Assembly (NCBI GenBank): GCA_963768165.1
Contig: CAVYHJ010000026.1
Location: 435,337 to 499,336, forward strand
Source: an uncultured bacterium
Lineage (GTDB): Bacteria > UBP4 > UBA4092
DNA length: 64,000 bases
Direction of reading: 5' to 3'
The translations under genes and the position numbers were made by a program. Positions 3,488-62,853 of the stretch are shown one piece after another. The first letter of the stretch is position 1; every line of letters begins with the position of its first letter. The notes beneath the pieces were generated by a model. That model made no database searches. It was given only the letters and a program-made list of their open reading frames with translations, and was not told where the DNA came from.

Positions 3488-3516
3488 TTGACAATTATTG
3501 AATTATGTTTTATAAA
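3488..3516 (+). promoter_or_regulatory. Sigma-70-like promoter: TTGACA at 3488-3493, a 17-nt spacer, then TATAAA at 3511-3516
   Basis: Near-consensus -35 and -10 elements with ideal 17-nt spacing lie immediately upstream of the HNH gene. The predicted transcription start falls at about 3522-3524, at or next to the ATG codons at 3521 and 3527, so the mRNA may be leaderless. Confidence 0.45.
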
Positions 3517-3526
3517 ACATATGCTT

Positions 3527-14167: not shown

Positions 14168-14168
14168 T

Positions 14169-15587
14169 ATGGCGCGTATTCTCGTAGTAGACGATGAACA
14201 GCATCTTTGTGGTGCATTAAAACTTTTATTGGAATTAGAAGGATACGAAGTAATGACAGCCAATGACGGTCTTTCCGCATTGGATATTGTTGGCAACCAA
14301 AAAATTGATTTGGTCATCACGGACGTACGCATGCCACGTATGGATGGGATGCAGCTCCTTAAAAAAGTGCATCAAACCAATCCACTGATTCCCGTGATTG
14401 TCATGACCGCTTATGCCAATTTAAAAGATGGAATTCAAGCCATGAAAGACGGAGCATATCACTATTTGATGAAACCGTTTGAAAATGACGAAGTGAAATT
14501 ACAAGTTAAAAAATCATTGGAGGAACTGCGCCTCCGGTCGGAACTGGCTTATCTACGTGATGAACTTGACCAGCGATATCCTTTTAAAAATATCATCGGA
14601 CATAGTGAGGCTATGTTACAAGTGTTTGAATTAATTCGCCGGGTGGCTCCTTCCAAAAGCACGGTCTTAATCACTGGAGAAAGCGGAACAGGGAAAGAAT
14701 TGGTCGCTCGTGCGATTCATGACAACAGCCCCCGCCGAGACAAGGCTATGATTAAAGTAAATTGTGTCGCTATTCCGGATACATTGTTGGAAAGCGAATT
14801 ATTCGGCCATGTAAAAGGCGCCTTCACGGATGCAACATATACCAAACCGGGAAAATTTGAACTGTCCGAAGGAGGGACCATCTTCTTGGATGAAATCGGG
14901 GATATGAGTCTTGCCCTCCAGGGAAAAATATTACGGGTATTGCAGGAGAGAGAATACGAACCTGTGGGTGGAACAGCTACAAAGCAAGTTGACATCCGGG
15001 TTATCGCGGCCACCAACCGGCCGTTAAAAAGGCTAGTTCAGGAAAATCAATTTAGGGAAGATTTGTATTTTCGTTTAAATGTAGTTCCTATTAACGTTCC
15101 ACCATTACGAAATCGCAAAGAGGATATTCCAGAATTAGTACAGTTCTTCTTACAAAAGGATACCCGGGAAACAGGGAAAAGAATTGAAAAAATAAATCCA
15201 GATGCACTCTTCTTTTTAAAAGAATATACCTATCCAGGTAATGTCCGGGAATTGGAAAATATGATTGAAAGGGCTGTAGTATTGTGTCAAAAATCGGAAT
15301 TGGATATACAGGATTTTCAATTCAGTGTAGCGGATACTCCGCGGACACAGCCCATTCAAGAACCCCTCCCAACCCTATCCTATCGCGAAGCCAAACAGGT
15401 CGTGTTAGAAAATTTCGAACGAAAATTCTTTATGGATGCCCTGACATTCGCCCGAGGAAACATATCCAAAGCGGCAGAACATATAGGGATGCACCGAAAA
15501 AACTTTTATGAAAAGCTAAATCAGTATAAAATTAATACTCAAGATTTTGTTCGGACGGAGGAGGATTTAAAACAGAATGAAGAATAA
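14169..15587 (+). CDS. Sigma-54-dependent Fis-family response regulator (NtrC-like)
   Basis: Receiver domain (ILVVDDE...DLVITDVRMP), AAA+ sigma-54 activator motifs GESGTGKE, ESELFGH and GAFTDA, and a C-terminal HTH. It starts 2 nt after the kinase stop. Confidence 0.9.
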   Translation: MARILVVDDEQHLCGALKLLLELEGYEVMTANDGLSALDIVGNQKIDLVITDVRMPRMDGMQLLKKVHQTNPLIPVIVMTAYANLKDGIQAMKDGAYHYLMKPFENDEVKLQVKKSLEELRLRSELAYLRDELDQRYPFKNIIGHSEAMLQVFELIRRVAPSKSTVLITGESGTGKELVARAIHDNSPRRDKAMIKVNCVAIPDTLLESELFGHVKGAFTDATYTKPGKFELSEGGTIFLDEIGDMSLALQGKILRVLQEREYEPVGGTATKQVDIRVIAATNRPLKRLVQENQFREDLYFRLNVVPINVPPLRNRKEDIPELVQFFLQKDTRETGKRIEKINPDALFFLKEYTYPGNVRELENMIERAVVLCQKSELDIQDFQFSVADTPRTQPIQEPLPTLSYREAKQVVLENFERKFFMDALTFARGNISKAAEHIGMHRKNFYEKLNQYKINTQDFVRTEEDLKQNEE

Positions 15588-33592: not shown

Positions 33593-34645
33593 ATGGGATT
33601 AATAGTAAAAAGGTATTGCTGGGAATGTATACCGATCCATAACTGGTGCGGTATTATCGGTAGTATTTATGAGAGCGGTTATAAATGGAGGTACGATGCG
33701 TTTAAAAAACACTGTCCCCAATGTGATTCTGCGCAGGTTAAAAAGAATGGAAGAAGTCGTCATGGGAAGCAAAGATGGCTGTGTAAAAGATGTGGTACGA
33801 CGTATGGATGGAAGAATGTCGCGAGTAAGTTCCTTCGACAAAAGATATGGTTTAAACGCTGGATTATCGAAGGATATACGCTACGGCAATTATCCGCGCA
33901 GAGTGGTCATAGTCGCTATTATGTACGGCAGACGGTGCGGTATTGGTTGGAGCGGGCTCCGGTAGAAAGCCTATCCGTTTCAGAATGTCGGTATGTCTTA
34001 CTGGATGGAACGTTTTTGGAAAATCGCCGGGGTCTGTTGAGTGTCATGCACGCTCCGGAGTATAGAGTCTTTTATAGTGCCTATGGTCTGAGCGAAGGCC
34101 TCCGGGATGTAACCCGATTTTGTACATTTCTGCGGGATCAGGGACTTTGTCCGATTAGCGCGACCATTGATGGGAACCCGCATTTGACAAGGGTTTTAAA
34201 GACTCTTTGGCCACAGATCTTCATTCAACGTTGTTTGGTTCATGTGCAACGTCAAGGATTGAGTTGGTGTCGTCGGAATCCCAAGAGAACCGATGCCAAA
34301 CATCTTCGGCAGATTTTTCTCCAAGTGATGTCCATTCGTTCTTTGCAACAAAAAGAGGATTTCCCGGGTCAGATTCAACAATGGGAAGAACGCTTTGGTC
34401 AAGCCATCCATCAAGCCCCGGAATCCGGCTGGGTCTTTAGTGATCTTAAACGGGCACGGAGTATGTTGCTTTCCGCTCTGCCGAATATGTTCTATTATTT
34501 TCAAGACCCTCTCATCCCAACCTCCACGAATGCGTTGGAAGGATATTATTCTCGTCTCAAGCAAAGATATCGGCAACATCGAGGACTCGCAAAGCGTTTC
34601 CGAAAGACCTATTTCCAATGGTATACTTATTTATGTCCCAAGTAA
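33593..34645 (+). CDS. Putative DDE transposase with an N-terminal zinc-ribbon (IS1/IS1595-like; family not resolved)
   Basis: N-terminal CPQCDS...KKNGRSRHGKQRWLCKRCGTTY zinc-ribbon resembling IS1 InsA or the IS1595 Zn_Tnp domain. Candidate D-D-E residues are LLDGTF, TIDGNP and NALEGYYSRLKQRYRQHR (E with a downstream K/R). It shares the purine-rich composition of the preceding gene. Confidence 0.55.
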   Translation: MGLIVKRYCWECIPIHNWCGIIGSIYESGYKWRYDAFKKHCPQCDSAQVKKNGRSRHGKQRWLCKRCGTTYGWKNVASKFLRQKIWFKRWIIEGYTLRQLSAQSGHSRYYVRQTVRYWLERAPVESLSVSECRYVLLDGTFLENRRGLLSVMHAPEYRVFYSAYGLSEGLRDVTRFCTFLRDQGLCPISATIDGNPHLTRVLKTLWPQIFIQRCLVHVQRQGLSWCRRNPKRTDAKHLRQIFLQVMSIRSLQQKEDFPGQIQQWEERFGQAIHQAPESGWVFSDLKRARSMLLSALPNMFYYFQDPLIPTSTNALEGYYSRLKQRYRQHRGLAKRFRKTYFQWYTYLCPK

Positions 34646-38583: not shown

Positions 38584-39447
38584 TTATTTAGTATCGTGAC
38601 GTATCTGAATTCCCTCAAAATCAAATTTGAATGGAATCACCTGGCAAACGTTTTCCAGTTCATGAGAGATACGCCTTTTATCTCCAACAAACAGAAGGCA
38701 GCCTCCTCCTCCAGCGCCAGTCGCTTTTCCGGCAATTGCTCCTGTCTTACAAGCTCGTTTAAAAATATCCTCAATCCGTGGGTTTGTGACACCCTTACCT
38801 ATTTTCTTTTGTCCTTCCCAATTCTGATTCATTAAATTGGCAAATAAACGCAAATTCCCTTTTTCCAATGCACCGGCCATTTTCTGTGCGGCGTCACGAA
38901 TTTGAATTAGTCCTTCAATAGTTTTTTTATTTTTATTTTTAAAATTCCGCATGACTTCTGTGACAATATTACTCGAAGATCGGCTTTTTCCGGTATAACA
39001 CAAAACCAAATGCTCTTCGAATTGGTGTAGAAAAGATTTCGTTAACTTAATGGGATGTACTTCCACCTTATCCATGTGAAACGTCATATAATTAATCCCG
39101 CCAAACGCCGCGGCATACTGATCTTGGCGTCCCCCGGATATTCCAAGCAATTTCTCCAACCAATATGATTTTCCCGCCACATCAGCAACATTCAAATCAT
39201 TATTGATTAATTTCAACCAAACAATATTCATAGCGGCGGATGTGCCCAAACCGGAAGAAGCTGGAATATCGCTACGATACTCCACACCTATTTTATCTTC
39301 CTTATCAATAATAATTTTCCCTTCTACATATTTATTAATCGCAGCATTTACGACGGTTCCCCCTTCTTCATCCGAATATGGAGGGACATCGGTCCACCCA
39401 CCGGCAAAATCAATACGCACCGGTGCCCGTACCATCGTAACACTCAT
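38584..39447 (-). CDS. GHMP-family sugar kinase (HddA / fucokinase / glucuronokinase-like)
   Basis: VRAPVRIDFAGGWTDVPPY N-terminal motif and a GHMP ATP-binding motif (PASSGLGTSAA). Confidence 0.65.
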   Translation of the reverse strand: MSVTMVRAPVRIDFAGGWTDVPPYSDEEGGTVVNAAINKYVEGKIIIDKEDKIGVEYRSDIPASSGLGTSAAMNIVWLKLINNDLNVADVAGKSYWLEKLLGISGGRQDQYAAAFGGINYMTFHMDKVEVHPIKLTKSFLHQFEEHLVLCYTGKSRSSSNIVTEVMRNFKNKNKKTIEGLIQIRDAAQKMAGALEKGNLRLFANLMNQNWEGQKKIGKGVTNPRIEDIFKRACKTGAIAGKATGAGGGGCLLFVGDKRRISHELENVCQVIPFKFDFEGIQIRHDTK

Positions 39448-39475
39448 TGATATACCTTTTTCATTAACATTAAAC

Positions 39476-40315
39476 TTACTTGATTAGCATTCCCGCGTAA
39501 CCATTAACCTGGGAATAATCTCCGGTGACATCGCCGCTAGTTACATATTTTACCAATTCAGCACTGGACGCCCCTAATTCTTTCGCCGCTAATAACAGGG
39601 TCATTACTCCATTCATCCCACAATACGACAATCCAAATCGTTTAATCCCCTTGGTTAATTCTTCTGTCTCCAGGTGTGCGATATCATTAATTACTTTTTG
39701 ATCCTTCCGGTTGGCCATTTCCTGAGTCAAATCCTGGGATAAATCGCTTGTCGCCACTATCACTACTCTTCGATCAAATGAATGAATAGAACGCACAATC
39801 GCCTTGCTTAATTCTTCACACAACGCAATATTGATACGGGTGGGCAATAATATGGGAATTATCTTGAAACTTTTTCTTGCAAAATATTGCATGACCGGTA
39901 ATTGTACTTCAATGGAATGTTCCTTTTCATGAGGATGCGGGTCATCGGACATATTTTTCATAGACGCTTTAATGTCCTGCACCAGTCGTTGATTAATCTC
40001 CAAATCTCCCAAGGGTGTTTTCCATATCCCGCGTGGAAAAATAGCTGCTTGCCCGGTTTTTTGCGTATGTATGGGGCCAAGAATGATAAAATCATCCGGG
40101 GTTTCAACTTTTCGATACGTTTCCACGAGAACTTTCCCACACCAGTCGTATCCCGCATGAGGAGTCAATACGCCCATGACCGGTTCGGGAAAAACTTTGG
40201 AAACGGGAGACAACTGTTGAATTAATTCACGTATCTTTTCCGCAGATCCCGGATAGAAATGTCCCGCTACAACCGGATGACGAATAATCATTTCAGAAAC
40301 ACTGCTTTCTTCCAT
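39476..40315 (-). CDS. MEMO1-family protein (AmmeMemoRadiSam system protein B homolog)
   Basis: N-terminal IRHPVVAGHFYPGSAEKIRELI (Memo AGxFYP motif) and a LTPHAGYDW His motif. Confidence 0.7.
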   Translation of the reverse strand: MEESSVSEMIIRHPVVAGHFYPGSAEKIRELIQQLSPVSKVFPEPVMGVLTPHAGYDWCGKVLVETYRKVETPDDFIILGPIHTQKTGQAAIFPRGIWKTPLGDLEINQRLVQDIKASMKNMSDDPHPHEKEHSIEVQLPVMQYFARKSFKIIPILLPTRINIALCEELSKAIVRSIHSFDRRVVIVATSDLSQDLTQEMANRKDQKVINDIAHLETEELTKGIKRFGLSYCGMNGVMTLLLAAKELGASSAELVKYVTSGDVTGDYSQVNGYAGMLIK

Positions 40316-40395
40316 AAAAATAGATTTCAGATTTAAGGTTTCAGTTTTTTCCTGAACGCTGGAACCTGTTTTCTTACATTTTTACTTACATTATA

Positions 40396-40623
40396 TCACT
40401 GGGACTGTGCCGGAGGCGGGGTACTTGGTTCGGGCGCTGTATCCGTATGTTTTGAAATTTTCATGCTAATCATACCCAAGATAATCACAACTAATATAAA
40501 TATCACCGCACAAACGGTTTTTAGAGGAATTGTTTTCCCTTCCAGACGAGTTTCCCACAACCGGCCAGCATAAAAGCCGACTAAAAAAAGTACTACTCCG
40601 CTAACGACATAATAGAGAAGCAT
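40396..40623 (-). CDS. Small membrane protein (75 aa, two hydrophobic segments, Pro-rich tail)
   Basis: ORF with a TM-like segment (VVSGVVLFLVGFYAG). It sits inside a co-directional cluster. Confidence 0.3.
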   Translation of the reverse strand: MLLYYVVSGVVLFLVGFYAGRLWETRLEGKTIPLKTVCAVIFILVVIILGMISMKISKHTDTAPEPSTPPPAQSQ

Positions 40624-40653
40624 GGTTTTTAGAGAACCACTTCCTCCTCTTGT

Positions 40654-40878
40654 TTACATACACCCACAACTACCACCGCAGCAGCCTCCTCCGCCCGTGG
40701 AAGACGGGCTGGAGCTAGGAATTCCATTGGATTTACCAATTCCAAAAGCGGATAATTGGATTTCCACTTTGGGACTACTGCACGTCGGACAAACAACACA
40801 TTCCTTGTCTTCCGAAGTAAATACCAGTTTTTCAAAATTTCGATTACAATCGCTACATTGAAACTCAAAAAGGGGCAT
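40654..40878 (-). CDS. FmdB-family zinc-ribbon protein with a Gly/Cys-rich C-terminal tail
   Basis: MPLFEFQCSDCNRNFE...CVVCPTCSS is a CxxC...CxxC zinc ribbon. The tail is GGGGCCGGSCGCM. Confidence 0.6.
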   Translation of the reverse strand: MPLFEFQCSDCNRNFEKLVFTSEDKECVVCPTCSSPKVEIQLSAFGIGKSNGIPSSSPSSTGGGGCCGGSCGCM

Positions 40879-40941
40879 AATCTCTCCTTTCTATTGGAAG
40901 ATTTATACTATCTATTCTATTGATTTCTGTCAAGTTAGTGG

Positions 40942-41994
40942 TCAGACAATATATTGGGAGAAGGCGTCTTTATTGATAGCATACTCATAAGCATCCTGCC
41001 CACGAATTTTATTGACCATAATCAAATTTTTCAGACATTGGTCAAGGGTTTGCATCCCCATTTTTCCACTGGTCTGAATTAAAGAAGGTATTTGATGAGT
41101 TTTGCCTTCGCGGACTAATGCCCGAACCGCGATTGTACCGAACATAATTTCCAGAGCGCAAACCCGACCGCTTCCATCCAATGTCGGTACGAGTGCCTGA
41201 CAAAGAACTCCAGCGAGACTATTCCCCAACTGTGTTCGAATCTGCGATTGTTGATGGGGTGGAAAAATATCAATAATGCGGTCCACCGTTGTTGCCGCCG
41301 AATTGGTATGCAATGTTGCAAATACCAAATGACCGGTTTCTGCTGCCGTAATCGCCAATTGAGTGGTTTCCAAATCTCGCATTTCACCTACCAGAATAAT
41401 ATCAGGATCCTCACGTAGAGCGGAACGCAGCGCATTGGCAAAAGAATGGGTATGCGCGACGATTTCTCTTTGGTTGATCATGCAATTTTTATTCCCATGA
41501 ACAAATTCAATAGGGTCTTCGATAGTAATAATATGTTCATTGCGATGGATATTGAGATTGTCAATGAGAGCTGCCAAAGTTGTAGATTTGCCCGACCCTG
41601 TTGGACCCGTCACCAATACGAGACCGCGTTTTAAACGGTTCAATTCAAGAATAGAATCCGGTAATCCTAAATCGTGAACAGACTTGATCTTGGTGGGGAT
41701 GACTCGAAATACGGCACCTTCTCCTCTGCGCTGGTTAAAGACATTGACTCTAAATCGGGATAATCCTTGCAATTCCAGAGAAAAATCTATTTCCAGTTGT
41801 TCTTGAAACCGTGCTTTTTGCTCATCCGTTAATATATCATAAAGCATGGTATGGACTTCTTCGCGAGAAACAGCCGCATCCGTTACAGGCTGCAATTGTC
41901 CATTAATACGTAACATCGCCGGAGCACCCGAGGAAATATGCAAATCGGACGCATTTTGTTCAATCGTCATTTGTAATAATGTTGTTATATCCAT
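40942..41994 (-). CDS. pilT: Type IV pilus retraction ATPase PilT
   Basis: Walker A LVLVTGPTGSGKSTT, an Asp box, Walker B (IILVGEMRD) and a His box. Length 350 aa. Confidence 0.9.
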   Translation of the reverse strand: MDITTLLQMTIEQNASDLHISSGAPAMLRINGQLQPVTDAAVSREEVHTMLYDILTDEQKARFQEQLEIDFSLELQGLSRFRVNVFNQRRGEGAVFRVIPTKIKSVHDLGLPDSILELNRLKRGLVLVTGPTGSGKSTTLAALIDNLNIHRNEHIITIEDPIEFVHGNKNCMINQREIVAHTHSFANALRSALREDPDIILVGEMRDLETTQLAITAAETGHLVFATLHTNSAATTVDRIIDIFPPHQQSQIRTQLGNSLAGVLCQALVPTLDGSGRVCALEIMFGTIAVRALVREGKTHQIPSLIQTSGKMGMQTLDQCLKNLIMVNKIRGQDAYEYAINKDAFSQYIV

Positions 41995-42012
41995 ATATAC
42001 GCTTTAAACCGG

Positions 42013-43647
42013 TTAGATTTCCAATTCACCAAATTTTTGATAAATTTCCTCCATGCTAATTATTCCTTTTTGGGCATTTTCTATGGATTGACGAATTATA
42101 GGATCAAATCCCTCTTTTTCAGACATCTTCAAAATTATATCCACATCTTTTCCCGTTCCCAAAAGTTTTTTAACAGGTTTTGCCGGGATAAAAATCTCCA
42201 AAATATTTTGGTATCCAATATATCCCGTTTGGTCGCATTTAGCGCATCCGGTTGAATGATAATAAGATTTCTTAGCCGCCTTTTTTGTTGATTTCTCTGT
42301 AGGTTGTTTCGTTGAATTCAGAATCCTACAAGAAGGACACAAAGACTGAAATTGTGCACCCGCTATGATGGAGAGTAGATACGATTTTAATACAGATGGT
42401 TTTATATTCCGGTTTTGTAAACAAATTAATGTTTCGTTCACAGATAAATAAGGCAATGTACCAATAATTAATTTTTCACGGACACTGGCATCAAACACGG
42501 TTCCCAATAAATCTTCCGAATCCGCCAAATCCACCATTAAAACATCCCCTCCTAAAATCAGTGACTGGTGAAAAATTTCTTTCAATGCTATCCCTTGCAT
42601 TTTTTCCTGGGACAATTGGATATAACGGTCATCGGTAATGGTGAATGTCTTTTCAATCGTAATAATTTTACGCTTTTCATTTTGAATCCCTTGCAACAAC
42701 ATATAGGCTAACCGGGTTCTCAACCAATCCGATTTACTGGAAATCAAAATAACACCACCTGTCCGGGACAACTGTAAAAGAACTCTCTGAAATAAAGGGC
42801 CCAAGGCTTGTTCATCCAATGAAACCGGGGAATTTATTGTTTGGTGGATTCGTAAGGTTAATAATTCACCTCTTGCCGTTATCAAAACGACCCCTTCAAG
42901 TTGTATTGTATTTTGACCCGTATGGAAAGCTATGGTACCTGATTGAAAAACGTGTTGTTTGGTAAAATCAAACTGAAAGACAATTTTTACACGAGAAAGT
43001 AACGCAAGATAAATTTCTTGAGAGAGCGATTCTTTTGGTACCAACTGCTTTTCGATCCGATATCGAATACGGACATCTTTTCCGGTTGGTTCGAAATGAA
43101 TTTCATCGGCCTCAAATGTTATCGCATCTTCGATATATTTCCTGAAAAAATCCAAAGAACCGGGATGTGTTAAATGCGTATAGGATACTGCCGATTCCGA
43201 AGGTCTTAGGGAAAGAGTTCCGAATATAGACTCTAAAACCTGCTGTATATTACTGGGACGGGCAAGAGCAGGCCGGATTTTACATTTCGTGATAGATTCC
43301 AAATCTGCGATGGTTTTGCTGTCCGTGGGGTCGGACATCACAACAGTCAACTCGTCATCAACGCGAATTAACGGCAAGACATTATAACTCACCAAAACTT
43401 CTTGGGGAATGGACTTCACCAGATCAAGATCAATCATATCCAAGTTTAAATGGACATAGGGCATATCCAATTGTTGGCTGAGGATAAAGTTTAAATCATC
43501 TTCAGAAATCCAGTGATTCTGGATTAAAATCGTTCCCAAGCGCTGTTTGGTGCTTTTTTGTTCCTGGAGCGCGTGTTCCAACTGGTCGGTGGAAATCAAA
43601 TGACGATCGAGTAGAATTTCCCCCAGTTTGGAAACATGCTTTTTCAT
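42013..43647 (-). CDS. GspE/PilB-like protein with an MshEN-type N-terminal domain (two tandem 24-aa c-di-GMP-binding-like motifs) and a degenerate ATPase core lacking Walker A (putative pseudo-ATPase)
   Basis: KLGEILLDRHLISTDQLEHALQEQ-kstkq-RLGTILIQNHWISEDDLNFILSQQ matches the MshEN RLGxxLLxxGxIxxxxLxxALxxQ consensus twice. An ASDIHFEP-like segment (ADEIHFEPTGKDVRIRYRI) is retained. The Walker A position reads GGVILISSKSD instead of GPTGSGKT. A C-terminal tetracysteine (CPSCR...CAKCDQTGY) is retained. Confidence 0.7.
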   Translation of the reverse strand: MKKHVSKLGEILLDRHLISTDQLEHALQEQKSTKQRLGTILIQNHWISEDDLNFILSQQLDMPYVHLNLDMIDLDLVKSIPQEVLVSYNVLPLIRVDDELTVVMSDPTDSKTIADLESITKCKIRPALARPSNIQQVLESIFGTLSLRPSESAVSYTHLTHPGSLDFFRKYIEDAITFEADEIHFEPTGKDVRIRYRIEKQLVPKESLSQEIYLALLSRVKIVFQFDFTKQHVFQSGTIAFHTGQNTIQLEGVVLITARGELLTLRIHQTINSPVSLDEQALGPLFQRVLLQLSRTGGVILISSKSDWLRTRLAYMLLQGIQNEKRKIITIEKTFTITDDRYIQLSQEKMQGIALKEIFHQSLILGGDVLMVDLADSEDLLGTVFDASVREKLIIGTLPYLSVNETLICLQNRNIKPSVLKSYLLSIIAGAQFQSLCPSCRILNSTKQPTEKSTKKAAKKSYYHSTGCAKCDQTGYIGYQNILEIFIPAKPVKKLLGTGKDVDIILKMSEKEGFDPIIRQSIENAQKGIISMEEIYQKFGELEI

Positions 43648-43679
43648 AGACGTTTTTTAATCATGTAGCCAATTAACTA

Positions 43680-44396
43680 TTAAACCATCTCGGATTCTGT
43701 CTCGCTCACATATAGAATGCGGGAACAATCTTCACATCGAACAATACGTTCTTGCTTGTGGACTTCGTTAATGACCTGTGGCGGGAGAGTCATAGAACAA
43801 CCCTGGCAAACATTTCCCCGGATAGGCACCAGTGCCGAACCAGACCATTTCAACGAAATCCGGTTATAGGTTTTCAAGAGATTGGGTTCAATCGCGTCCG
43901 AGAGAGAGCTACGCTTGGTTTCTGCCTCTTTGAGTAAAGATTCTAATCGTGCCATCTCCATCTTAAATCTTTGTTCTGTCTCTGCAAACCGGACTTTTTC
44001 CTGTTGGACAACCACTTTTATCCGGGTGGCCTCCTCTTTGGATTTATCGATTGCTTCCATAATTTCTAAAAGAGCATCCTCCAGTTTGGATTTCTTCGAC
44101 TTAGCATCCTCAATTTCATGCTGCATCGCTTTATACTGTTCGTTGGTTTTCACTGAATATAACTGCGAACCTAACTTCTGGATTTCCTCTTCCCGCGTTT
44201 TCAAATCCAGTTCTTTCGCATGGCGCTCTTTTATAGCCACTTCCGATTTCCCAACCAAGTCTTTTTCCTGGGCGAGAGCGGTGGTAAGTTTGCTTTGGTG
44301 CATTTCCAATTGACGGGGAATATCTCCCAATTCCGCCTTTATTCGTAAAATATGGTTATCCAGTTCCTGTAATTCTAACAACTGTTTTAAATACAT
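43680..44396 (-). CDS. COG1579-like zinc-ribbon protein with a long coiled-coil
   Basis: Coiled-coil through most of its length, and a C-terminal CQGCSMTLPP...RCEDCSRILY zinc ribbon. Confidence 0.55.
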   Translation of the reverse strand: MYLKQLLELQELDNHILRIKAELGDIPRQLEMHQSKLTTALAQEKDLVGKSEVAIKERHAKELDLKTREEEIQKLGSQLYSVKTNEQYKAMQHEIEDAKSKKSKLEDALLEIMEAIDKSKEEATRIKVVVQQEKVRFAETEQRFKMEMARLESLLKEAETKRSSLSDAIEPNLLKTYNRISLKWSGSALVPIRGNVCQGCSMTLPPQVINEVHKQERIVRCEDCSRILYVSETESEMV

Positions 44397-44581
44397 AATT
44401 TCAAAAAATTACCTATTTCCTTTCATTTAATAGCCTTTAATTTATACCATTCTTAGACGAATTAGTCAAAAAAATTATGCGGGCTTGTTTGGGAATGCCT
44501 TTTGTGTTCAACCAATTATGGTAATATCAAGTATATAGTAGTGATGGTTTTTATCGTTTATTTGTTATTGGAGGAATTCTT

Positions 44582-45364
44582 ATGAATCCCGTCAAATATT
44601 TTTCGAAAAAAAATAGCTCTCTCCAAAATAAAGGAGAAGATCACCGGTCGAATATATCTGAGTTCCGTGTTCTCGAGAACAGCGAGAGCATAAATCTTAA
44701 ATCTAAAATATGCATTCTCCTATTTTCTGTTTTTGTGTTTACAATAGCAACCTTCGCCTTTTCTTCACAACCAGAGACTATAAACGAGAAACCAGAAACT
44801 GTTAAATACGACCTTGCTTTACAACGGGATATCTATCGCTATACCAATTACACCGGTTCTCGGGCTCTTTCCAAATTAATCCTGTTGGATGTCCAGGACA
44901 GTCGGTCATCGCAAGAAAAAAATGGCGGATTACTCCAAGACCAAACTACCGACAAGGATTGGAAAAGACCTCTCCCCATTATGCTTTCCGACTTATTTAC
45001 CACCGAAATGCAACGCGCCAGTCTCATTAAATTAATTCCAGCAACATCCGATAATCTGGACTATCGTCTTACCTTAAAAATTATCTCCCTGTATGCTGGA
45101 ACAAAAGAAAATAGCTCAAACTCCGGGATCAAACATTGGTTTGCACCCCGCATCGCCCACGGTTACGCTGATCTCCAAATCATCCTCTCCGATAAATCCG
45201 GTAAGGAAATCTCCAATACCGATTTTATCGCCAATGCTCAGCAGGAACTCGGTCGATTCTCCAATAACCACCTTGCTGCCGTTAAAGTCCTCGGTCTGGC
45301 TCTCCGCGAGTCCATCGCTTCTTTCCTACAAGACTTGGATTCCCGTCTCCAATTACCCAAATAA
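44582..45364 (+). CDS. Hypothetical membrane/secreted protein (260 aa)
   Basis: N-terminal hydrophobic segment ICILLFSVFVFTIATFAFS. No recognisable domain. Confidence 0.4.
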   Translation: MNPVKYFSKKNSSLQNKGEDHRSNISEFRVLENSESINLKSKICILLFSVFVFTIATFAFSSQPETINEKPETVKYDLALQRDIYRYTNYTGSRALSKLILLDVQDSRSSQEKNGGLLQDQTTDKDWKRPLPIMLSDLFTTEMQRASLIKLIPATSDNLDYRLTLKIISLYAGTKENSSNSGIKHWFAPRIAHGYADLQIILSDKSGKEISNTDFIANAQQELGRFSNNHLAAVKVLGLALRESIASFLQDLDSRLQLPK

Positions 45365-45397
45365 TTAACTAGGAACTAGAAACTAGGAACTTGGGAC
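45365..45397. repeat. Tandem heptamer repeat, reverse orientation (TTAACTAGGAACTAGAAACTAGGAACTTGGGAC)
   Basis: Reverse complement of the GTTCCTAGTTTCTAGTTCCTAG family. Confidence 0.6.
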
Positions 45398-47886
45398 TAT
45401 ATAATATCGGCATGAGTCGTCCTGTAGTTGTTTTTACTTTATGTTATATATTGGGAATTTTGCTTACGAGTTTTTTCCAAATTTCCACAGGTCTTCTTTT
45501 CTCGATTCTTTTCATAATTATTTGCATTTCTATCTTGATTCATTCCTATGCAAAGAAAATTAATTCTGTTCTATTAATCCTTTCATTTATTGTATTGGGA
45601 TTATTTCGCACCGCACAAGTGGGAGAAATATCTACCCACCAATTATTGGGAATGGAACAATACTCCAACGAACATGAATTTGTGTTCACCGGTCGTATCG
45701 TGGGTAATCCATTTTTATCATCACAACAAATTTCTTACATCGTTGACCATATAGCGATTCAAACGTCCAATGGGTTTGAACCGGTCAGTGGGAAATTATT
45801 GGTTAATCTTAAAAACAACGTATCCAATCAATATTTTTTATATAATGACCCCATTTTCGCCATGGGACAAATTCAAATTCCTCCCCTCCCTAGAAATCCT
45901 GGAGGATTTAATTACCGCGAATATCTGGTACGGCATGGAATTTACGGAATCGTCTATCTTAAAACCAATCGGATTTTTCTCGATACAAATATGCCTGAAT
46001 CGAACTTTGCTCATATCCTGAATCTGATTCCTCATTGTGGTTCAGAGATTCGTTATGAAATTGTTACAATAAACAATAAACTCATTCCAACTCCTTTCGC
46101 TGCTCTTGCCAACGGTATTTTTCTCGGTCTCCAATCCGATATACCCGATGAGATAAAGGATATTTATCGTAAAGCAGGGATATATCATCTGCTGGTTGTG
46201 AGCGGAGGACATGTATGGATGATGGGACTATTGGCTTTCGTCCTATTTCGCTCATTTTGTTTTAAACGTCGCTCCTCTGCAATCTTCACGATTCCCATCA
46301 TTCTATTCTACGGCTTCATCGCGGGATTCTCTCCACCGGTAACCCGTGCCGTTATTATGGCAGTCATCATATTATTGGGTTTAATTCTCCGTCGGGATAC
46401 CCAAGTCATTAACAGCCTCTCTCTTGCGGCCTGCATCATTTTACTTTTAAATCCCTACGAACTTTTTGATTCCAGTTTTCAATTTTCCTATCTGGCAGTG
46501 TTAGGAATTGCGACTCTAAGCCCGATACTGGAATCCATTTATCCCTTGAGAAGACCGCAAATTCTCATGAGGATTATCTACTGCACCCTGAGCGCTTTTA
46601 TTACTCTGATACCATTAATGGCAAAATACTTCAACCTTATACCCGTTTATTCGATGTTAACAAATATCGTGAACGCCCCATTAATTTCAATTTCTTTGCC
46701 CGCCTCTTTCTTAACAGGAATATCGTATCCCCTCTCACCCAATCTCGCTCAATTTATTGCCAATACCAATTGGCTTATCTTACGAGTCCTAACTAAAACC
46801 ACGGAATATATCGTCAATTCATCCGGTGCTTATATTATTGTTCCCAGTTGGCCTTTATGGCGAATATTGGTATATTACTTTTTTCTTCTTTGCTTTATCT
46901 ACGCTTTTAATCCCTTACAAGATCCTCCCGATTACCGTTTTCGGAAACACTGGCTCTATGCCGTTATGGTCTATTGTATTTTGTGGATTTTCATTCCTGT
47001 ATCATGGAATCACCATTCGGAACTCAAGGTCACATTTTTGGATGTAGATCAGGGAGATTGTATTGTCCTGGAATTTCCCAACGGAAAATCTGCACTGGTT
47101 GACGGTGGAGGTCGGGAACCGCTGGATCATGGCAAACGGGATATTCTCCCCTATTTATTTTCACACGGGATTACTCATGTTGACATGATAGTATTTACCC
47201 ATCCCGACAGTGACCATGCTGGAGGGTTGATTAGTGTTCTCGAAAGAGTCCCCGTTAATTTGGTTTTAGTAAACGGTTGGCCGGAAGCGAAAGAAAAACA
47301 ATATCTCCACGCCCTGAGCCTTGTCCAATCAAAAAATATTCCTTGCCAGATTGTTCATCGCGGACAAGAAATTCCCGATTTTGAACCCTGTCGAATTGAA
47401 GTTCTCAATCCACCTGAGTCCTTTCTCACTGGAACACCAGCGGACGATAATAATAACGGAATCGTGTTACGAGTCTCCTACGGCGATTATCAATTTCTCT
47501 TAACCGCTGATATCCAATCCGAAGCAGAACTAGATATGTTGAATGCCAACGTCCCACTAAATTCCACGATATTAAAAGTTGGACATCACGGGTCGAAAGC
47601 ATCCAGCACAGAGGCCTTTTTGGAGAAGGTCCATCCGTTGTTTGCTGTTATACAAGTTGGCAAACATAACCATTTCGGTCATCCCTCCCCACAAACACTG
47701 AACCGCTTAAATCAATTTCATATTCAAATCTACCGCAACGACCAAGACGGTGCAATAATTGCGAAGACAGATGGGAAAGTTTTACAGACTACTTCCATGG
47801 AAAAAGAATATGCTAATGCAAGGTCCGATATAACTGCAGAACCCGACTATGAATCTATTATTTCTCCAGATGAAGCTATACAATAA
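45391..47886 (+). CDS. comEC: DNA internalization competence protein ComEC/Rec2 with a C-terminal metallo-beta-lactamase domain
   Basis: A multi-TM competence domain and an MBL motif (FTHPDSDHAGG, KVGHHGS). The start is more likely the ATG at 45412, because 45391 overlaps the repeat. Confidence 0.85.
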   Translation: MGLYNIGMSRPVVVFTLCYILGILLTSFFQISTGLLFSILFIIICISILIHSYAKKINSVLLILSFIVLGLFRTAQVGEISTHQLLGMEQYSNEHEFVFTGRIVGNPFLSSQQISYIVDHIAIQTSNGFEPVSGKLLVNLKNNVSNQYFLYNDPIFAMGQIQIPPLPRNPGGFNYREYLVRHGIYGIVYLKTNRIFLDTNMPESNFAHILNLIPHCGSEIRYEIVTINNKLIPTPFAALANGIFLGLQSDIPDEIKDIYRKAGIYHLLVVSGGHVWMMGLLAFVLFRSFCFKRRSSAIFTIPIILFYGFIAGFSPPVTRAVIMAVIILLGLILRRDTQVINSLSLAACIILLLNPYELFDSSFQFSYLAVLGIATLSPILESIYPLRRPQILMRIIYCTLSAFITLIPLMAKYFNLIPVYSMLTNIVNAPLISISLPASFLTGISYPLSPNLAQFIANTNWLILRVLTKTTEYIVNSSGAYIIVPSWPLWRILVYYFFLLCFIYAFNPLQDPPDYRFRKHWLYAVMVYCILWIFIPVSWNHHSELKVTFLDVDQGDCIVLEFPNGKSALVDGGGREPLDHGKRDILPYLFSHGITHVDMIVFTHPDSDHAGGLISVLERVPVNLVLVNGWPEAKEKQYLHALSLVQSKNIPCQIVHRGQEIPDFEPCRIEVLNPPESFLTGTPADDNNNGIVLRVSYGDYQFLLTADIQSEAELDMLNANVPLNSTILKVGHHGSKASSTEAFLEKVHPLFAVIQVGKHNHFGHPSPQTLNRLNQFHIQIYRNDQDGAIIAKTDGKVLQTTSMEKEYANARSDITAEPDYESIISPDEAIQ

Positions 47887-60141: not shown

Positions 60142-62853
60142 TTAAGTTGTTAATTTTAAACTATTTTCAAGTGCTTCCCTCAATTGATTGGCATCTTGAT
60201 ACCGGTCAGTAGGCCTTTTTTCGATACATTTCATCACAATATCCTGCATGGGCTTGGATGCAGGCATAGGCACCGGAGGAACAACATGAATATGTTGATA
60301 CCCGATATTTCCCTTGGTGAACGGTACCTCGCCGGTTAATAACTCATACATCATAATCCCTACAGAGTATATATCTGACCGATGATCCACCACTAATCCC
60401 TGCGTCTGTTCCGGGGACATATAAACCGGAGTCCCCAGCAAGTCTGAAGTGAGGGTTAATTTCTGCTCGTTTTTCATTTTGGCAATTCCAAAATCCATAA
60501 CCTTCACCGTATGGGTCGAATCTATCATAATATTAGCGGGTTTAATATCTCTATGAACCACTCCTTGCTCGTGTGCCGCTTGCAGGGCAAGACAAACCTG
60601 ACAAATGATTTCGGCAACTTCTTTTTCAGGAATTTTCCCTTTTTCCCGCAACAATTGCCGTAAATTTTTCCCTGCGACATATTCCATGGAAATATATTGA
60701 TTTCCATCTTCCTCCACAATATCGTAGATACGAACAATATTGCGATGTACCAATTTTCTCGTTGACCGAACTTCCCGCAAGAAACGTTCTAAAATCTGAG
60801 GGTCCTCCGCTAAATTTTTGGGTAACATCTTTAACGCAACCATCTCATTGAGCACGGTATCCATGGCACAACACACAATTCCCATTCCGCCTCGCGCAAT
60901 TTCTTCGATAATCCGAAAGCGTGTTTTCGCCGTAGGTGCTGGTGTTTTTTGTAAGGAAGTTTTTTCCATTTGTGCTTCCATGGAGCGCATCTTGGTTTCC
61001 CGAAGGATCACACCAACATCCCGGAATTTGGCGTCTACTGCATATATCTTATCCAGTATTTCCATGGCTTTGTCATACTTCTCCGATTGGCGATATGCCT
61101 GGGCCAGAATATAAAGCACTTCCTTGGATTCCTCCGTCAACGGCAAATTCGCCAATGCCTCTGCAGCGATATCCAGTTTCTTCATGTGTAGAAAACAACG
61201 CGCCATTCCCAATTCGCTTTTTCCCTGGAAATCGCTATGCTTGGCGGATTGTTGATATTCCAGGATCGCATCCTGCCATAGCTGTTTGTCTTCGTATAAC
61301 CGGCCCAGGTTAAAATGGATTAACGGCGGGATATCTGCTCCACTTTGGATTAACGATTGATATAAAGCCATCAACGTTTGATTAACTTCCGCCACTGCGC
61401 CGTCTTTCTCATGAATCCATTCGAAATCATGGATGGCATCCATTAATTGATTGAATTGAAGATAAAGTTTTGCCCGGCGCATCCGCGCATCCCGGGAATT
61501 AGGTTGAAATTCCAAGACAATGGAAAACCCTTTGAGCACTCGTTGTAACATAGCCTCATCGGAACAATATTCAATAACCCGATCATAAGAAGATATGGCA
61601 TAATCCGCTTGTCGAGAAATACTATAGGCGTCTCCCAACAATAAGGGAATCCGAAGTTCAGCAGGATACCGTAATGCCAATTTCTCCAGTTCCGGAACCA
61701 CCATTTTCCAACTGTCCGGGGATAATTGTAATAATTTTTCTGCGGACTCAATTAGTGCATGAATATCCTGCCTTGCTAAATAAAATCGAAACATTTCTTC
61801 CCAAACAGGAACCAATTCATTATTCAATTCCAATGCCTTTTTATAAGTCTCAAATGCTTGTTTATCTTCTCGCCGCATTCCCGCATAAGCCCGTGCCAGA
61901 CCGATAATAAATTCCGGCTCTTCCGGTGATTGCATGCAAAGCCGGTCATAAATAGAACTGGATTCCTCCCATTGTCCTGTCTCCAAATATACCCCTGCCA
62001 ACAAACGCATTACATCATTGTCCATAATTCCGCGTTTGACAAGATATTGACAATGTTCTATACATTGCATTAATTTTCTCTGGCGAAGATAAGCCTTGCT
62101 TAATGCCATGCGGACGATAACCAAATCCGGTTTTTCTTTCAATGCCTGTTCATAAATAAAGCAGGCGTTTGAGTCAGTCCTTCCCTGCTCACTATAAAAA
62201 GACGACAATGCTAGGATCAACGTGGTATCTTGTGGAGCGGCGGCGAGTGCGGCCTGGTAAATATCCAACGCCGTGTTATCATGTCGCTGCATCTTTAAAA
62301 AACACTGCGCCAGATTCACGTAGGTCTCTGGAGAAGCATTTCCACGCGCCACCAAAGTTGTCAGGATGGATGTCGCTTTTTCCCATTCTTTCTGTTTGAT
62401 TAATGCATCACTCGTAATCTGGAGTACCACCGGATCTATCACTCCCAATTGAATTGCTTTTTGATAAACTTCAATAGCCTGTGAATCATCTTTACCTTTT
62501 AATGCGTAACATCTTGCCAATTGTTGAATGACAGAATTATCCGGTGACCCTTCTTTATAAATCTTTTCATAAAAAGTAACCGCTTCATTATCCGTCCTGT
62601 CGGCTTTCGCAAAAGCAGTTCCTACTTTTTGGGTCAATTGAGGGTTGGTGCGGATTTTCTGGCCGTATTGCGTTAACGCCGTGTCGAAATCTCCCTCTTC
62701 AATTAGTTTTTCCACACTCACCCTGGCTGGTAATTTCTTTTTCCGATGGATATAAATTAATATGTAAAATCCGGCTAAACAAACCAACAACAATATCCCC
62801 AGTAGTATCTGCGTAGAAGGTGTCGTTAGCCATGTCATAAAAGCCCAATTCAT
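60142..62853 (-). CDS. Membrane-anchored Ser/Thr protein kinase with an N-terminal TM, about 12 TPR repeats and a C-terminal Hanks-type kinase domain
   Basis: Kinase motifs GGMGIVCCA...VALK, HRDIKPANIMID, DFGIAK and GTPVYMSPE at the C-terminus. The TM is followed by HRKKK, so the bulk is cytoplasmic. Confidence 0.85.
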   Translation of the reverse strand: MNWAFMTWLTTPSTQILLGILLLVCLAGFYILIYIHRKKKLPARVSVEKLIEEGDFDTALTQYGQKIRTNPQLTQKVGTAFAKADRTDNEAVTFYEKIYKEGSPDNSVIQQLARCYALKGKDDSQAIEVYQKAIQLGVIDPVVLQITSDALIKQKEWEKATSILTTLVARGNASPETYVNLAQCFLKMQRHDNTALDIYQAALAAAPQDTTLILALSSFYSEQGRTDSNACFIYEQALKEKPDLVIVRMALSKAYLRQRKLMQCIEHCQYLVKRGIMDNDVMRLLAGVYLETGQWEESSSIYDRLCMQSPEEPEFIIGLARAYAGMRREDKQAFETYKKALELNNELVPVWEEMFRFYLARQDIHALIESAEKLLQLSPDSWKMVVPELEKLALRYPAELRIPLLLGDAYSISRQADYAISSYDRVIEYCSDEAMLQRVLKGFSIVLEFQPNSRDARMRRAKLYLQFNQLMDAIHDFEWIHEKDGAVAEVNQTLMALYQSLIQSGADIPPLIHFNLGRLYEDKQLWQDAILEYQQSAKHSDFQGKSELGMARCFLHMKKLDIAAEALANLPLTEESKEVLYILAQAYRQSEKYDKAMEILDKIYAVDAKFRDVGVILRETKMRSMEAQMEKTSLQKTPAPTAKTRFRIIEEIARGGMGIVCCAMDTVLNEMVALKMLPKNLAEDPQILERFLREVRSTRKLVHRNIVRIYDIVEEDGNQYISMEYVAGKNLRQLLREKGKIPEKEVAEIICQVCLALQAAHEQGVVHRDIKPANIMIDSTHTVKVMDFGIAKMKNEQKLTLTSDLLGTPVYMSPEQTQGLVVDHRSDIYSVGIMMYELLTGEVPFTKGNIGYQHIHVVPPVPMPASKPMQDIVMKCIEKRPTDRYQDANQLREALENSLKLTT

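Follow-up and report, generated by a model that had tools for sequence, protein, structure and literature searches.

Within the window (the whole 64 kb stretch of DNA that was analysed), an open reading frame at 42013..43647 starts with ATG and encodes a protein of 544 aa, referred to here as pseudo-PilB. It lies on the (-) strand, a detail that was missing from the original prediction. Its description as an MshEN domain joined to a catalytically degenerate PilB/GspE-type scaffold draws on the open reading frame, Pfam, an AF2 model and dN/dS. Pfam T2SSE (PF00437) matches aa 168-535 (E=1.6e-34, 119.7 bits, cutoff 24.9), and the segments ADEIHFEP, VRIRYRI and CPSC...CAKC are all found in the translation, in agreement with the earlier view that the protein beyond its N-terminus is a relative of GspE-type ATPases. 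Equivalog level is not reached. The score is 186.9 bits against the PilB model TIGR02538 (cutoff 675.65), and the protein also falls under other equivalog cutoffs at the GspE and TfpB level (TIGR02533, 140.8 versus 630.25; NF053534, 119 versus 850). As read from its sequence, the gene is a PilB/MshE-derived pseudo-ATPase with the full three-part architecture: MshEN/N1, N2D, and a RecA-like C-terminal domain with a zinc module.

The stop codon of pseudo-PilB is followed after 18 nt by the start of a PilT retraction ATPase on the same strand (40942..41994, (-)). This protein passes TIGR01420 (476.7 bits, cutoff 319.1) and has the boxes GPTGSGKS, TIEDPIEF, ILVGEMRD and TLHTN; together with the junction, these bear out the original placement of the gene directly upstream of an intact PilT. 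On the other side, 32 nt upstream of pseudo-PilB, lies a gene for a CT398/CdsZ-like protein with a coiled-coil hairpin and a zinc ribbon (43680..44396, (-); Pfam CT398_CC and Zn_ribbon_9), probably the first gene of the operon. It does not meet the CdsZ equivalog NF047363 (92.7 bits, cutoff 275), and only the domain architecture is shared. A gene of this type occurs at the same position in three related lineages (L006, L024 and L025), with 44% identity in L024.

Two divergent genes follow, and their membership of the module is uncertain. One encodes a conserved 260-aa protein of unknown function with a single N-terminal hydrophobic segment and no Pfam match (44582..45364, (+)), 43% identical to the L024 gene in the same position. 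The other encodes a ComEC DNA-uptake channel (45391..47886, (+); Pfam DUF4131, Competence and Lactamase_B), and comEC adjoins the module both in the window and in L024. Downstream genes on the same strand as the module include a GHMP kinase, an NAD-dependent epimerase and a UDP-glucose dehydrogenase. By Pfam, the window contains housekeeping genes, a sigma54 two-component system, ComEC, an IS element and a kinase. Pfam scans of ~46 open reading frames detected no pilins, pilC or pilMNOPQ in the 64 kb, and tblastn searches of the window with canonical PilBs matched only the pseudo-PilB gene and PilT. Among named organisms, the nearest IleRS matches reach just 51-53% identity (Nitrospirota, Desulfobacterota and NPL-UPA2), which places the source no more closely than an uncultivated diderm bacterium. 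No riboswitch or other known RNA reached the Rfam gathering threshold over all 64 kb. Promoter and terminator counts in 39400-45500 were not above those in shuffled sequence, hence uninformative, and no clear Shine-Dalgarno sequence was seen at the gene junctions.

The N-terminus of pseudo-PilB resembles a c-di-GMP sensor in considerable detail. The motif model and the sequence place c-di-GMP motif I, KLGEILLDRHLISTDQLEHALQEQ, at aa 7-30 (43558..43629, (-)) and motif II, RLGTILIQNHWISEDDLNFILSQQ, at aa 36-59 (43471..43542, (-)). The two 24-residue motifs with a 5-residue gap that had been reported are thus located, with KSTKQ as the spacer; the expression ‘tandem MshEN’ needs correction, as there is a single MshEN domain that contains two tandem motifs. 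The MshEN C-terminal subdomain, an alpha/beta module of the GspE-N1/PilB-N1 type, occupies aa 60-145 (43213..43470, (-)), as judged by the Pfam MshEN match over aa 60-144 and the N-domain model. Both profile models pass their curated cutoffs: Pfam MshEN (PF05157) with E=9e-19 and 67.7 bits (cutoff 23.1), and NCBIfam NF053729, ‘c-di-GMP_motif’, with 66.1 bits over aa 7-59 (cutoff 38). A DUF4388/PATAN match at aa 6-30 (E=0.054) was judged insignificant.

The ligand contacts of MshE are defined, for each motif, as (R/K/L)-L-G at positions 1-3, Leu17, Leu21 and Gln24 (PMC5013675, PMC11731258). Pseudo-PilB keeps all of them, as K7-L8-G9, L23, L27 and Q30 in motif I and as R36-L37-G38, L52, L56 and Q59 in motif II. 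G9 and G38 correspond to G11 and G40 of MshE, the mutation of which abolishes c-di-GMP binding. The Lys that opens motif I is compatible with nanomolar binding, as the GSPII-B domain of PilF, in which Lys also occurs at position 1 and Trp at position 11, binds c-di-GMP with a Kd of 6 nM (PMC11731258).

At motif position 10, where MshE has the turn glycines G18 and G47 that are described as required for helix turns, both motifs of pseudo-PilB have His (H16 and H45). These residues lie outside even the relaxed [GAS] of Wang et al. 2016, and the turn-residue criterion is not met. Across the pseudo-PilB family, this position is G, N, H or E. In the N-domain model (pLDDT 90.6), the four-helix bundle is still predicted at pLDDT >90 despite His16 and His45. 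The best PDB match of this model, found with Foldseek, is MshE with c-di-GMP (5htl_A/B; TM 0.83-0.86, rmsd 2.0 A), followed by PilF GSPII-B with c-di-GMP, and the matches include 8pdk and 7lkm (PilB-N with PilZ). GspE with GspL (4pht, 2bh1) matches the C-terminal subdomain only, and not significantly (Foldseek E 0.1-0.55). An N-domain that failed MshEN models and did not bind c-di-GMP would have refuted the original prediction; on the first point, the profile models are passed and the closest fold is 5htl. That pseudo-PilB binds c-di-GMP through MshEN is nevertheless an inference, with no binding data and with the turn Gly changed to His in both motifs.

The rest of the protein has lost the residues of a motor. 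The catalytic boxes were read from alignments (HMMER and MAFFT) with solved PilF/PilB and 15 canonical PilBs as references. All features given here are on the (-) strand. The N2D-like domain (aa 171-290, 42778..43137) has FTKQHVFQSGT in place of the ERRxPQDG(R) arginine motif. Walker A (42715..42738; regex and alignments) reads SKSDWLRT for GPTGSGK[ST], so that all P-loop glycines are replaced and bulky or charged residues (S, K, S, D, W, L) stand there, with Arg310-Thr311 at the positions of the Walker Lys-Thr. The Asp box (42637..42660) reads TIEKTFTI for TIEDPVEY. In Walker B (42517..42546), DVLMVDLADS stands for DVIMVGEIRD and the catalytic Glu is gone, and in the His box (42442..42480), REKLIIGTLPYLS stands for TGHLVLSTLHTND and both His are gone. 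The RYRI strand retains R195 and R197, and the tetracysteine (zinc) module CPSC...CAKC is likewise present (42235..42339, from sequence and alignments; C437, C440, C468 and C471).

These alignments demonstrate the loss of the catalytic motifs. The claim that Walker A had been lost was open to the objection of a mis-aligned, intact P-loop; neither GxxxxGK[ST] nor [AG]xxxxGK[ST] occurs anywhere in the protein by regex, SKSDWLRT aligns at the position in question, and sequence and profile alignments agree. The Asp and His boxes, which had been called unrecognisable, appear in HMMER alignments to T. thermophilus PilF and Geobacter PilB as TIEKTFT and GTLPYLS opposite TIEDPVE and ATLHTND, which upholds that statement. 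The same alignments set SKSDWLRT against GPTGSGKS/T and DVLMVDLAD against DIIMVGEIRD. With Walker A, the Asp box, Walker B, the His box and the N2D arginine motif all lost, the earlier pseudo-ATPase reading gains support. A protein without any of the determinants of nucleotide binding and hydrolysis cannot be a motor and, to the extent that sequence alone can tell, pseudo-PilB is not one; there are no protein data on ATP hydrolysis or hexamer formation.

The fold is retained. The AF2 model of the whole protein has a pLDDT of 83.7, and its top Foldseek matches are PilF, PilB and GspE (5tsh, 5oiu, 4ksr; TM up to 0.84). Structure prediction, which had been proposed as a check, thus returns a kept PilB-type fold with an N-domain that superposes on MshE. 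The gene is under purifying selection: comparison with the L006 orthologue (69% identity) gives a dN/dS of 0.13. In the same comparison, dN is 0.18 for the whole gene versus 0.06 for PilT, and it is 0.09-0.10 for MshEN and 0.20-0.23 for the ATPase-like part, which makes MshEN the most constrained part of the protein.

Pseudo-PilB belongs to a family. Among the best 150 matches of an exhaustive profile search, ~18 clusters at 50% identity are fully degenerate and ~10 are partly degenerate. All of these come from uncultivated bacteria and are annotated as ordinary ATPases (‘PilB’, ‘GspE/PulE family protein’, ‘TadA’ or ‘ATPase, T2SS/T4P/T4SS family’). The degenerate relatives share 27-32% identity with the query (200-250 bits), more than any canonical PilB does (~25%, ~170 bits). 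Pseudo members cluster in a neighbour-joining tree, possibly through long-branch attraction, and monophyly is only suggestive. Open frames are full-length in every pseudo-PilB lineage, and two relatives have a nearly complete P-loop in which Lys is changed to Arg (P0068, GPSGSGRT; P0060, GPARSGRT).

Conservation within the family is concentrated at the sensor. G9, G38 and L56 are invariant across 16 pseudo-PilBs, as are P81, P92, D106 and P107 of the MshEN C-terminal subdomain, and each of the four zinc-site Cys is retained in 95% of the 19 members compared. Mean pairwise identity of MshEN_N is 0.40 in pseudo-PilBs versus 0.31 in canonical PilBs, whereas that of the CTD core is 0.23 versus 0.60. 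The pseudo family thus conserves its sensor best and its motor core least, whereas canonical PilBs show the opposite. Full-text literature searches found no description of a PilB/GspE pseudo-ATPase (most subscription papers were outside their scope, and absence is not proof), and the family has apparently not been described so far.

Synteny with pilT is conserved across the family. A PilT-type gene lies directly downstream of pseudo-PilB in 11/12 lineages (10 intact, 1 degenerate), as opposed to 13/59 (22%) canonical PilBs, a strongly positive outcome for the co-occurrence with pilT that had been put forward as a check. The link is kept across 25-32% identity among pseudo lineages. The Fisher p of ~1e-5 is optimistic, because the 12 lineages are not phylogenetically independent, and the baseline consists of the canonical PilBs that made up most of the matches of a metagenome search with an 8-member family alignment. 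Moreover, adjacency of pilB and pilT is an ancestral operon order, present in 22% of canonical PilBs, so the synteny could partly be inheritance. The one exception is L110, in which radC, not pilT, follows pseudo-PilB; the degenerate PilT-like partner is that of L111. A PilU-like gene is also found at several loci (L001, L026 and L109), and in L013 a REC-PATAN regulator follows PilT. The L028 lineage also encodes an RR-GGDEF cyclase, GAF kinases and a second, canonical PilB, which indicates that pseudo-PilB can be accessory, not a replacement.

Pseudo-PilB shares with V. cholerae MshE, M. xanthus PilB and T. thermophilus PilF the order of MshEN, N2D and CTD with Cys4, a two-motif c-di-GMP site (including the Lys-first and Gly/x-Trp variants of PilF GSPII-B) and N-domain and core folds that superpose. 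Unlike these proteins, it lacks the catalytic boxes and the N2D arginine motif, its pattern of domain conservation is reversed, and it is paired with pilT without pilC or other pilus genes nearby. Another likeness is the engineered Walker-A variant K327A of M. xanthus PilB, which is motor-dead and nucleotide-free and acts as a dominant signalling protein (PMC5544727). Both are motor-dead PilBs that carry MshEN motifs, and the variant still has a signalling output. However, K327A is a laboratory point mutant, whereas the dead state of pseudo-PilB is natural, ancient, family-wide and far more extensive.

The logic of a degenerate sensor on a pilus motor is also known from FimX of Xanthomonas and Pseudomonas, whose GGDEF and EAL domains are catalytically degenerate and which senses c-di-GMP and regulates the type IV pilus motor by binding (PMC8389850, PMC11656802). 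The folds are unrelated, and FimX acts on PilB, and so on extension, via PilZ, whereas pseudo-PilB is a homologue of PilB in its own right and has its genetic link with PilT. PilU is reported to be a second protein of the hexameric ATPase family that is encoded beside pilT and whose function depends on PilT (PMC6762196). It differs from pseudo-PilB in being catalytically active, in belonging to the PilT clade and in having no MshEN. Partners with an ATPase fold and no motor activity organise or regulate the true motor in the archaellum (FlaH) and the Tad pilus (TadZ). These come from other ATPase families (KaiC/RecA-like and ParA/MinD-like, respectively) and have no c-di-GMP sensor.

So, what might an apparently motor-dead PilB homologue do beside PilT? 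We lean towards a c-di-GMP-responsive, non-motor regulator of PilT or the pilus machine, a reading that we hold to be rather probable; binding, partner and direction of regulation are inferred, and neither a pilus nor a canonical PilB is established in the source genome. Pseudo-PilB would be co-transcribed with the intact PilT and, in its subclade, also with the CT398/CdsZ-like coiled-coil zinc-ribbon protein. Its MshEN would bind c-di-GMP, and its PilB-like scaffold may dock on PilT or else on the cytoplasmic pilus platform, where PilB and PilT use the PilM/PilC site. The level of c-di-GMP would then gate either retraction by PilT or the access of motors, with pseudo-PilB as sensor and adaptor but no engine. 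The adaptor role in retraction is inferred from the synteny and the pattern of constraint, with no test of interaction.

Pseudo-PilB could instead be purely a signalling output protein, a counterpart in nature of the M. xanthus Walker-A mutant of PilB, which is permanently nucleotide-free. It would pass the c-di-GMP signal on to something other than the pilus, such as the synthesis of exopolysaccharide or envelope sugars, and its adjacency to PilT would merely survive from the ancestral operon. The M. xanthus mutant does signal EPS production independently of pilus assembly (PMC5544727), the sugar-related kinase, epimerase and dehydrogenase genes lie downstream on the same strand in the window, and the L111 partner is degenerate too, leaving a pair without any motor. 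The sugar-nucleotide genes are not conserved beside the pair in other lineages, however, and the PilT link persists in all but one lineage at such low identity. We regard this explanation as unlikely, if not to be dismissed. Conservation at the ligand contacts (G9, G38, L23 and L56 are the top-conserved residues of the family, not only those of the C-terminal subdomain) bears on another possibility, namely that the protein works without c-di-GMP as a structural or assembly part of a machine for competence or pili, such as a static PilT-recruiting ring, and that MshEN is kept as a platform-binding N1 domain. The same N1 domain in GspE/PilB binds GspL, PilM or PilZ, and fold matches include 7lkm and, for the C-terminal subdomain only and without significance, the GspE-GspL structures 4pht and 2bh1; His for the turn Gly in both motifs and comEC beside the module in the window and L024 would also fit. 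Yet the c-di-GMP motif model NF053729 scores well above its cutoff, and GspE N-domains that do not bind, such as that of XpsE (2d27), have changed several key residues where pseudo-PilB has changed none, so we consider a purely structural role improbable.

An atypical motor or nucleotide switch that still binds nucleotide, or slowly hydrolyses it, via a non-canonical site is very hard to reconcile with the replacement of every P-loop glycine and the absence of the catalytic Glu, both His, the Asp-box acids and the N2D ERRxPQDG; it can appeal only to Arg310-Thr311 at the Walker Lys-Thr positions, to P0068 and P0060 with their almost complete P-loops (Lys to Arg), and to the kept R195 and R197. 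As for a decaying, functionless pilB remnant, the loss of all catalytic motifs and a dN that exceeds that of PilT (0.18 > 0.06) are as expected, but full-length frames in every lineage, a dN/dS of 0.13, a family that still has its invariant sensor residues and Cys4 site at 25% identity, and a confident structure prediction effectively refute it.

Should pseudo-PilB indeed act as a c-di-GMP-responsive regulator beside PilT, a broader role can be imagined, which we put forward tentatively and think somewhat doubtful as a whole. Pseudo-PilBs may be widespread, unrecognised c-di-GMP receptors that serve as a clutch or brake on PilT, each a decoy with the shape of a motor that, in competition for the site at which motors dock, places retraction, and with it twitching, surface sensing and DNA uptake, under direct second-messenger control; the double pseudo-ATPase of the L111 type would be a pure signalling pair. 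Because databases name pseudo-PilBs as PilB/GspE-type ATPases, genome-based inferences of an extension motor are wrong where such a gene is the only PilB-like one. If the reading is correct, pseudo-PilB would be the first natural pseudoenzyme in the PilB/GspE motor family. The control of pilus retraction by c-di-GMP is poorly understood, and to our knowledge all of the receptors described (MshE, PilB, PilF and FimX-PilZ) have the extension motor as their target. A motor-dead PilB homologue tied to PilT would offer a testable route for c-di-GMP to reach the retraction side.

The pseudo-PilB open reading frame spans 42013-43647 on the minus strand (544 codons), and ADEIHFEP, VRIRYRI, GGVILISSKSD and CPSC...CAKC, the strings quoted in the original prediction, were each located within it. 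The two 24-residue c-di-GMP motifs occur as proposed, at residues 7-30 (motif I, KLGEILLDRHLISTDQLEHALQEQ) and 36-59 (motif II, RLGTILIQNHWISEDDLNFILSQQ), separated by the 5 residues KSTKQ. Profile searches support the anticipated domains far above chance: Pfam MshEN matches residues 60-144 (E = 9e-19), Pfam T2SSE matches residues 168-535 (E = 1.6e-34), and the NCBIfam domain model 'c-di-GMP_motif' (NF053729) matches residues 7-59 with 66.1 bits (cutoff 38). The PilB equivalog model scores only 187 bits against a cutoff of 676, the first sign, at the level of sequence, of an atypical ATPase half.

The P-loop is indeed lost. A pattern search of the entire protein found neither GxxxxGK[ST] nor [AG]xxxxGK[ST], and there is no hidden Walker A. 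The same substitutions emerge whether the protein is aligned with HMMER to solved PilF and PilB structures or with MAFFT to canonical PilBs: SKSDWLRT for Walker A (canonical GPTGSGK[ST]), DVLMVDLAD for Walker B (DVIMVGEIRD) and, for the Asp and His boxes that had appeared unrecognizable, TIEKTFT (TIEDPVE) and REKLIIGTLPYLS (canonical TGHLVLSTLHTND). Comparing columns against 15 canonical PilBs shows FTKQHVFQSGT in place of the N2D motif ERRxPQDG(R), a further loss; structural positions are kept, including the Cys4 zinc site, G260-E261, G298, E332, Q344, G475, G528 and E534. The AlphaFold2 model (40-sequence alignment) is confident (pLDDT 83.7), and the PDB structures that it matches best are PilF, Geobacter PilB and GspE (target-normalised TM ≤ 0.84, 21-22% identity). 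Given the missing boxes and the PilB-like model, alignment and prediction indicate a protein that folds like PilB and cannot act as a motor. What remains is a zinc-binding scaffold in the shape of PilB, with every catalytic residue gone.

In MshE, motif residue 1 stacks on the guanine of c-di-GMP, Leu2 and Gly3 contribute, the backbone amides of Gly3 and the following residue contact O6 and N7, Leu17 and Leu21 make hydrophobic triangles, and Gln24 binds the ribose-phosphate (PMC5013675). The equivalents in pseudo-PilB are K7-L8-G9, L23, L27 and Q30 in motif I and R36-L37-G38, L52, L56 and Q59 in motif II. Judged by residue identity alone, the sensor is complete, with each ligand-contact position retained in both motifs. 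[quoted passage not shown] (PMC11731258); Trp at position 11 is common to motif II and GSPII-B. The single deviation is at motif position 10, where His16 and His45 replace helix-turn glycines (MshE G18/G47) and fall outside the relaxed [GAS] of Wang et al.; pseudo-PilB passed the MshEN tests in all other respects. These residues shape the turns without touching the ligand, and a separate AF2 model of residues 1-145 (pLDDT 90.6) still predicts the four-helix bundle despite the histidines. Its top PDB matches are MshE with c-di-GMP (5htl, TM 0.83-0.86, rmsd 2.0 Å over 140 columns) and, next in rank, PilF GSPII-B in its c-di-GMP-bound form. With the contacts kept, the bundle predicted and these structural matches, c-di-GMP binding is likely, but not demonstrated.

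A word-indexed search recovered only two homologous proteins that also lack the catalytic boxes, P0002 (69% identity) and P0003 (31%); other matches were canonical. When 1.84 billion cluster representatives were searched exhaustively with HMMER, using a profile built from these two and the query, the top 150 included ~18 representatives with none of Walker A, Walker B or the His box, and ~10 more in which the P-loop is kept and the His box and Walker B Glu are lost. The degenerate relatives share 27-32% identity with the query (200-250 bits), versus ~25% (~170 bits) for the best canonical PilBs, and they group together in a neighbour-joining tree, for which long-branch attraction is possible. 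All are from uncultivated bacteria, with any taxon that is given being Armatimonadota, Limnocylindrales or just 'bacterium', and are labelled PilB, GspE/PulE, TadA, generic ATPase or hypothetical protein. In several, the P-loop is near-complete but has Arg for Lys (GPSGSGRT, GPARSGRT); Arg is the commonest residue at this position in the family, and the query likewise has Arg-Thr, which suggests gradual decay from an ancestor that was already hydrolysis-dead. In a high-GC lineage (contigs L049, L063 and L076), CGPRRSGCST stands where Walker A would be and the Cys4 zinc site is missing too; this lineage preserves both c-di-GMP motifs well, with PilT downstream.

The invariant columns of a 16-member alignment are G9, G38, L56, P81, P92, D106, P107, A175, E332, L410, L436 and G475. 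Seven of the 12 are within MshEN, including both glycines whose mutation in MshE abolishes binding. Mean pairwise identities in the pseudo family versus canonical PilBs are 0.40 versus 0.31 for MshEN_N, 0.34 versus 0.28 for MshEN_C, 0.22 versus 0.45 for N2D and 0.23 versus 0.60 for the CTD core, so the order of domain conservation is opposite in the two groups.

As originally noted, pseudo-PilB is immediately upstream of an intact PilT (40942-41994). It follows a CT398/CdsZ-like coiled-coil zinc-ribbon gene (43680-44396); all three are on the minus strand, with gaps of 32 and 18 nt in the order CdsZ-like gene, pseudo-PilB, PilT. A search of the 64-kb window found no further type IV pilus or secretion gene. 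The suggested co-occurrence analysis covered 12 pseudo-PilB lineages with downstream sequence. Intact PilT is directly downstream (2-334 nt) in ten of them, represented by the window and metagenomic contigs (window with L006; L001-4 with L007; L010, L011 and L013; L024; L025; L026; L028; L029, partial; L049, L063 and L076; and L109). PilT follows canonical PilB at 13 of 59 loci (22%) with enough downstream DNA in the same metagenome scan, against a PilT-type gene, intact or degenerate, after pseudo-PilB in 11 of 12 lineages (Fisher p ~ 1e-5, lineages not phylogenetically independent). In the other two lineages, radC is downstream (L110) or the PilT-like gene is itself degenerate (L111, Armatimonadota). 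At the genetic level, pseudo-PilB is tightly and conservedly coupled to PilT. At L111:125-2694, the PilT-like gene overlaps the pseudo-PilB stop by 4 nt and carries GPSGSGRT, TIEQPIEY, LLVSELPD and TALPTR, and in both partners the His box has Pro for His, as in the query (GTLPY); the pair therefore comprises two pseudo-ATPases.

The CdsZ-like gene is upstream only within the query's subclade (window, L006, L024 and L025). The window (43680-47886) and L024 (2002-8705; pseudo-PilB 32% identical) have in common a five-gene block of comEC, an unknown ~200-260-aa membrane protein (43% identity), then, transcribed divergently, a CdsZ-like gene (44%), pseudo-PilB and PilT; the shared block suggests a possible link to DNA uptake. 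The surroundings of pseudo-PilB and PilT at L028:4541-13596 include two histidine kinases with GAF domains, three response regulators, of which one is a diguanylate cyclase (RR-GGDEF), and another PilB. This second PilB is canonical (GPTGSGKT), and its N-terminus has no RLG c-di-GMP motifs, which hints that sensor and motor are divided between two PilB-type proteins. A REC + DUF4388 (PATAN) response regulator directly follows the linked PilT in L013 (12767-13939); in cyanobacteria, PATAN regulators are reported to make contact with pilus motors (bioRxiv 10.1101/2021.06.11.447907). Directly after PilT, in the window (40654-40878, minus strand) and in L006, is a 74-aa FmdB-type zinc-ribbon protein with an unusual Gly/Cys-rich C-terminal tail, GGGGCCGGSCGCM.

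Elsewhere in the window, an IS-like transposase (InsA zinc ribbon and Mutator-family domain; 33593-34645), an HNH endonuclease (3488-4162) and a separate XerC/D-type tyrosine recombinase (4389-5279), all on the plus strand, may be remnants of mobile elements in a region that otherwise carries housekeeping genes. Also encoded are a 903-aa protein (60142-62853, minus strand) with TPRs over most of its N-terminal part and a C-terminal Ser/Thr kinase, a sigma54-dependent two-component pair (12344-15587), and the diderm markers LolA, Lgt, LspA and a SurA-like protein. No named organism is closely related to the source: its IleRS reaches no more than 53% identity to sequences from named Nitrospirota, Desulfobacterota or NPL-UPA2.

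We infer that pseudo-PilB may bind c-di-GMP, dock on the motors' platform site or directly on PilT, and through docking gate retraction. Fold matches class the N1/MshEN_C subdomain of pseudo-PilB with the GspE-N1/PilB-N1 type, a binder of GspL, PilM or PilZ. An engineered Walker-A mutant of M. xanthus PilB is motor-dead with dominant signalling (PMC5544727), so apo PilB can have regulatory output. We also considered a pure signalling output without relation to PilT, a structural subunit independent of c-di-GMP, and a residual nucleotide switch. That the gene is a decaying relic is effectively excluded by its retained structural positions, the invariant sensor columns of the family and a dN/dS of 0.13 relative to the L006 orthologue (69% identity). 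The PilT value for this comparison is 0.046, and dS is ~1.36 for both genes, close to saturation. Within pseudo-PilB, dN is lowest in the MshEN part (0.09-0.10) and highest in the ATPase-like part (0.20-0.23). Pseudo-PilB is a functional gene, with purifying selection focused on the sensor.

By analogy, such a gated-retraction protein would work most like a fusion of two known themes, the c-di-GMP sensor of MshE/PilB/PilF and the degenerate-enzyme-as-receptor logic of FimX. Pseudo-PilB is a PilB homologue without the catalytic hallmarks of a PilB, and classifying it as a PilB or GspE ATPase would therefore be wrong. A full-text literature search found no description of a PilB/GspE pseudo-ATPase, a 2024 review on how PilB is regulated is silent on the subject, and the family appears unrecognised so far. 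For specialists this would be a moderate surprise. The family also brings the unresolved control of retraction by c-di-GMP within reach of testing, but its function is inferred and its carriers are all uncultivated.
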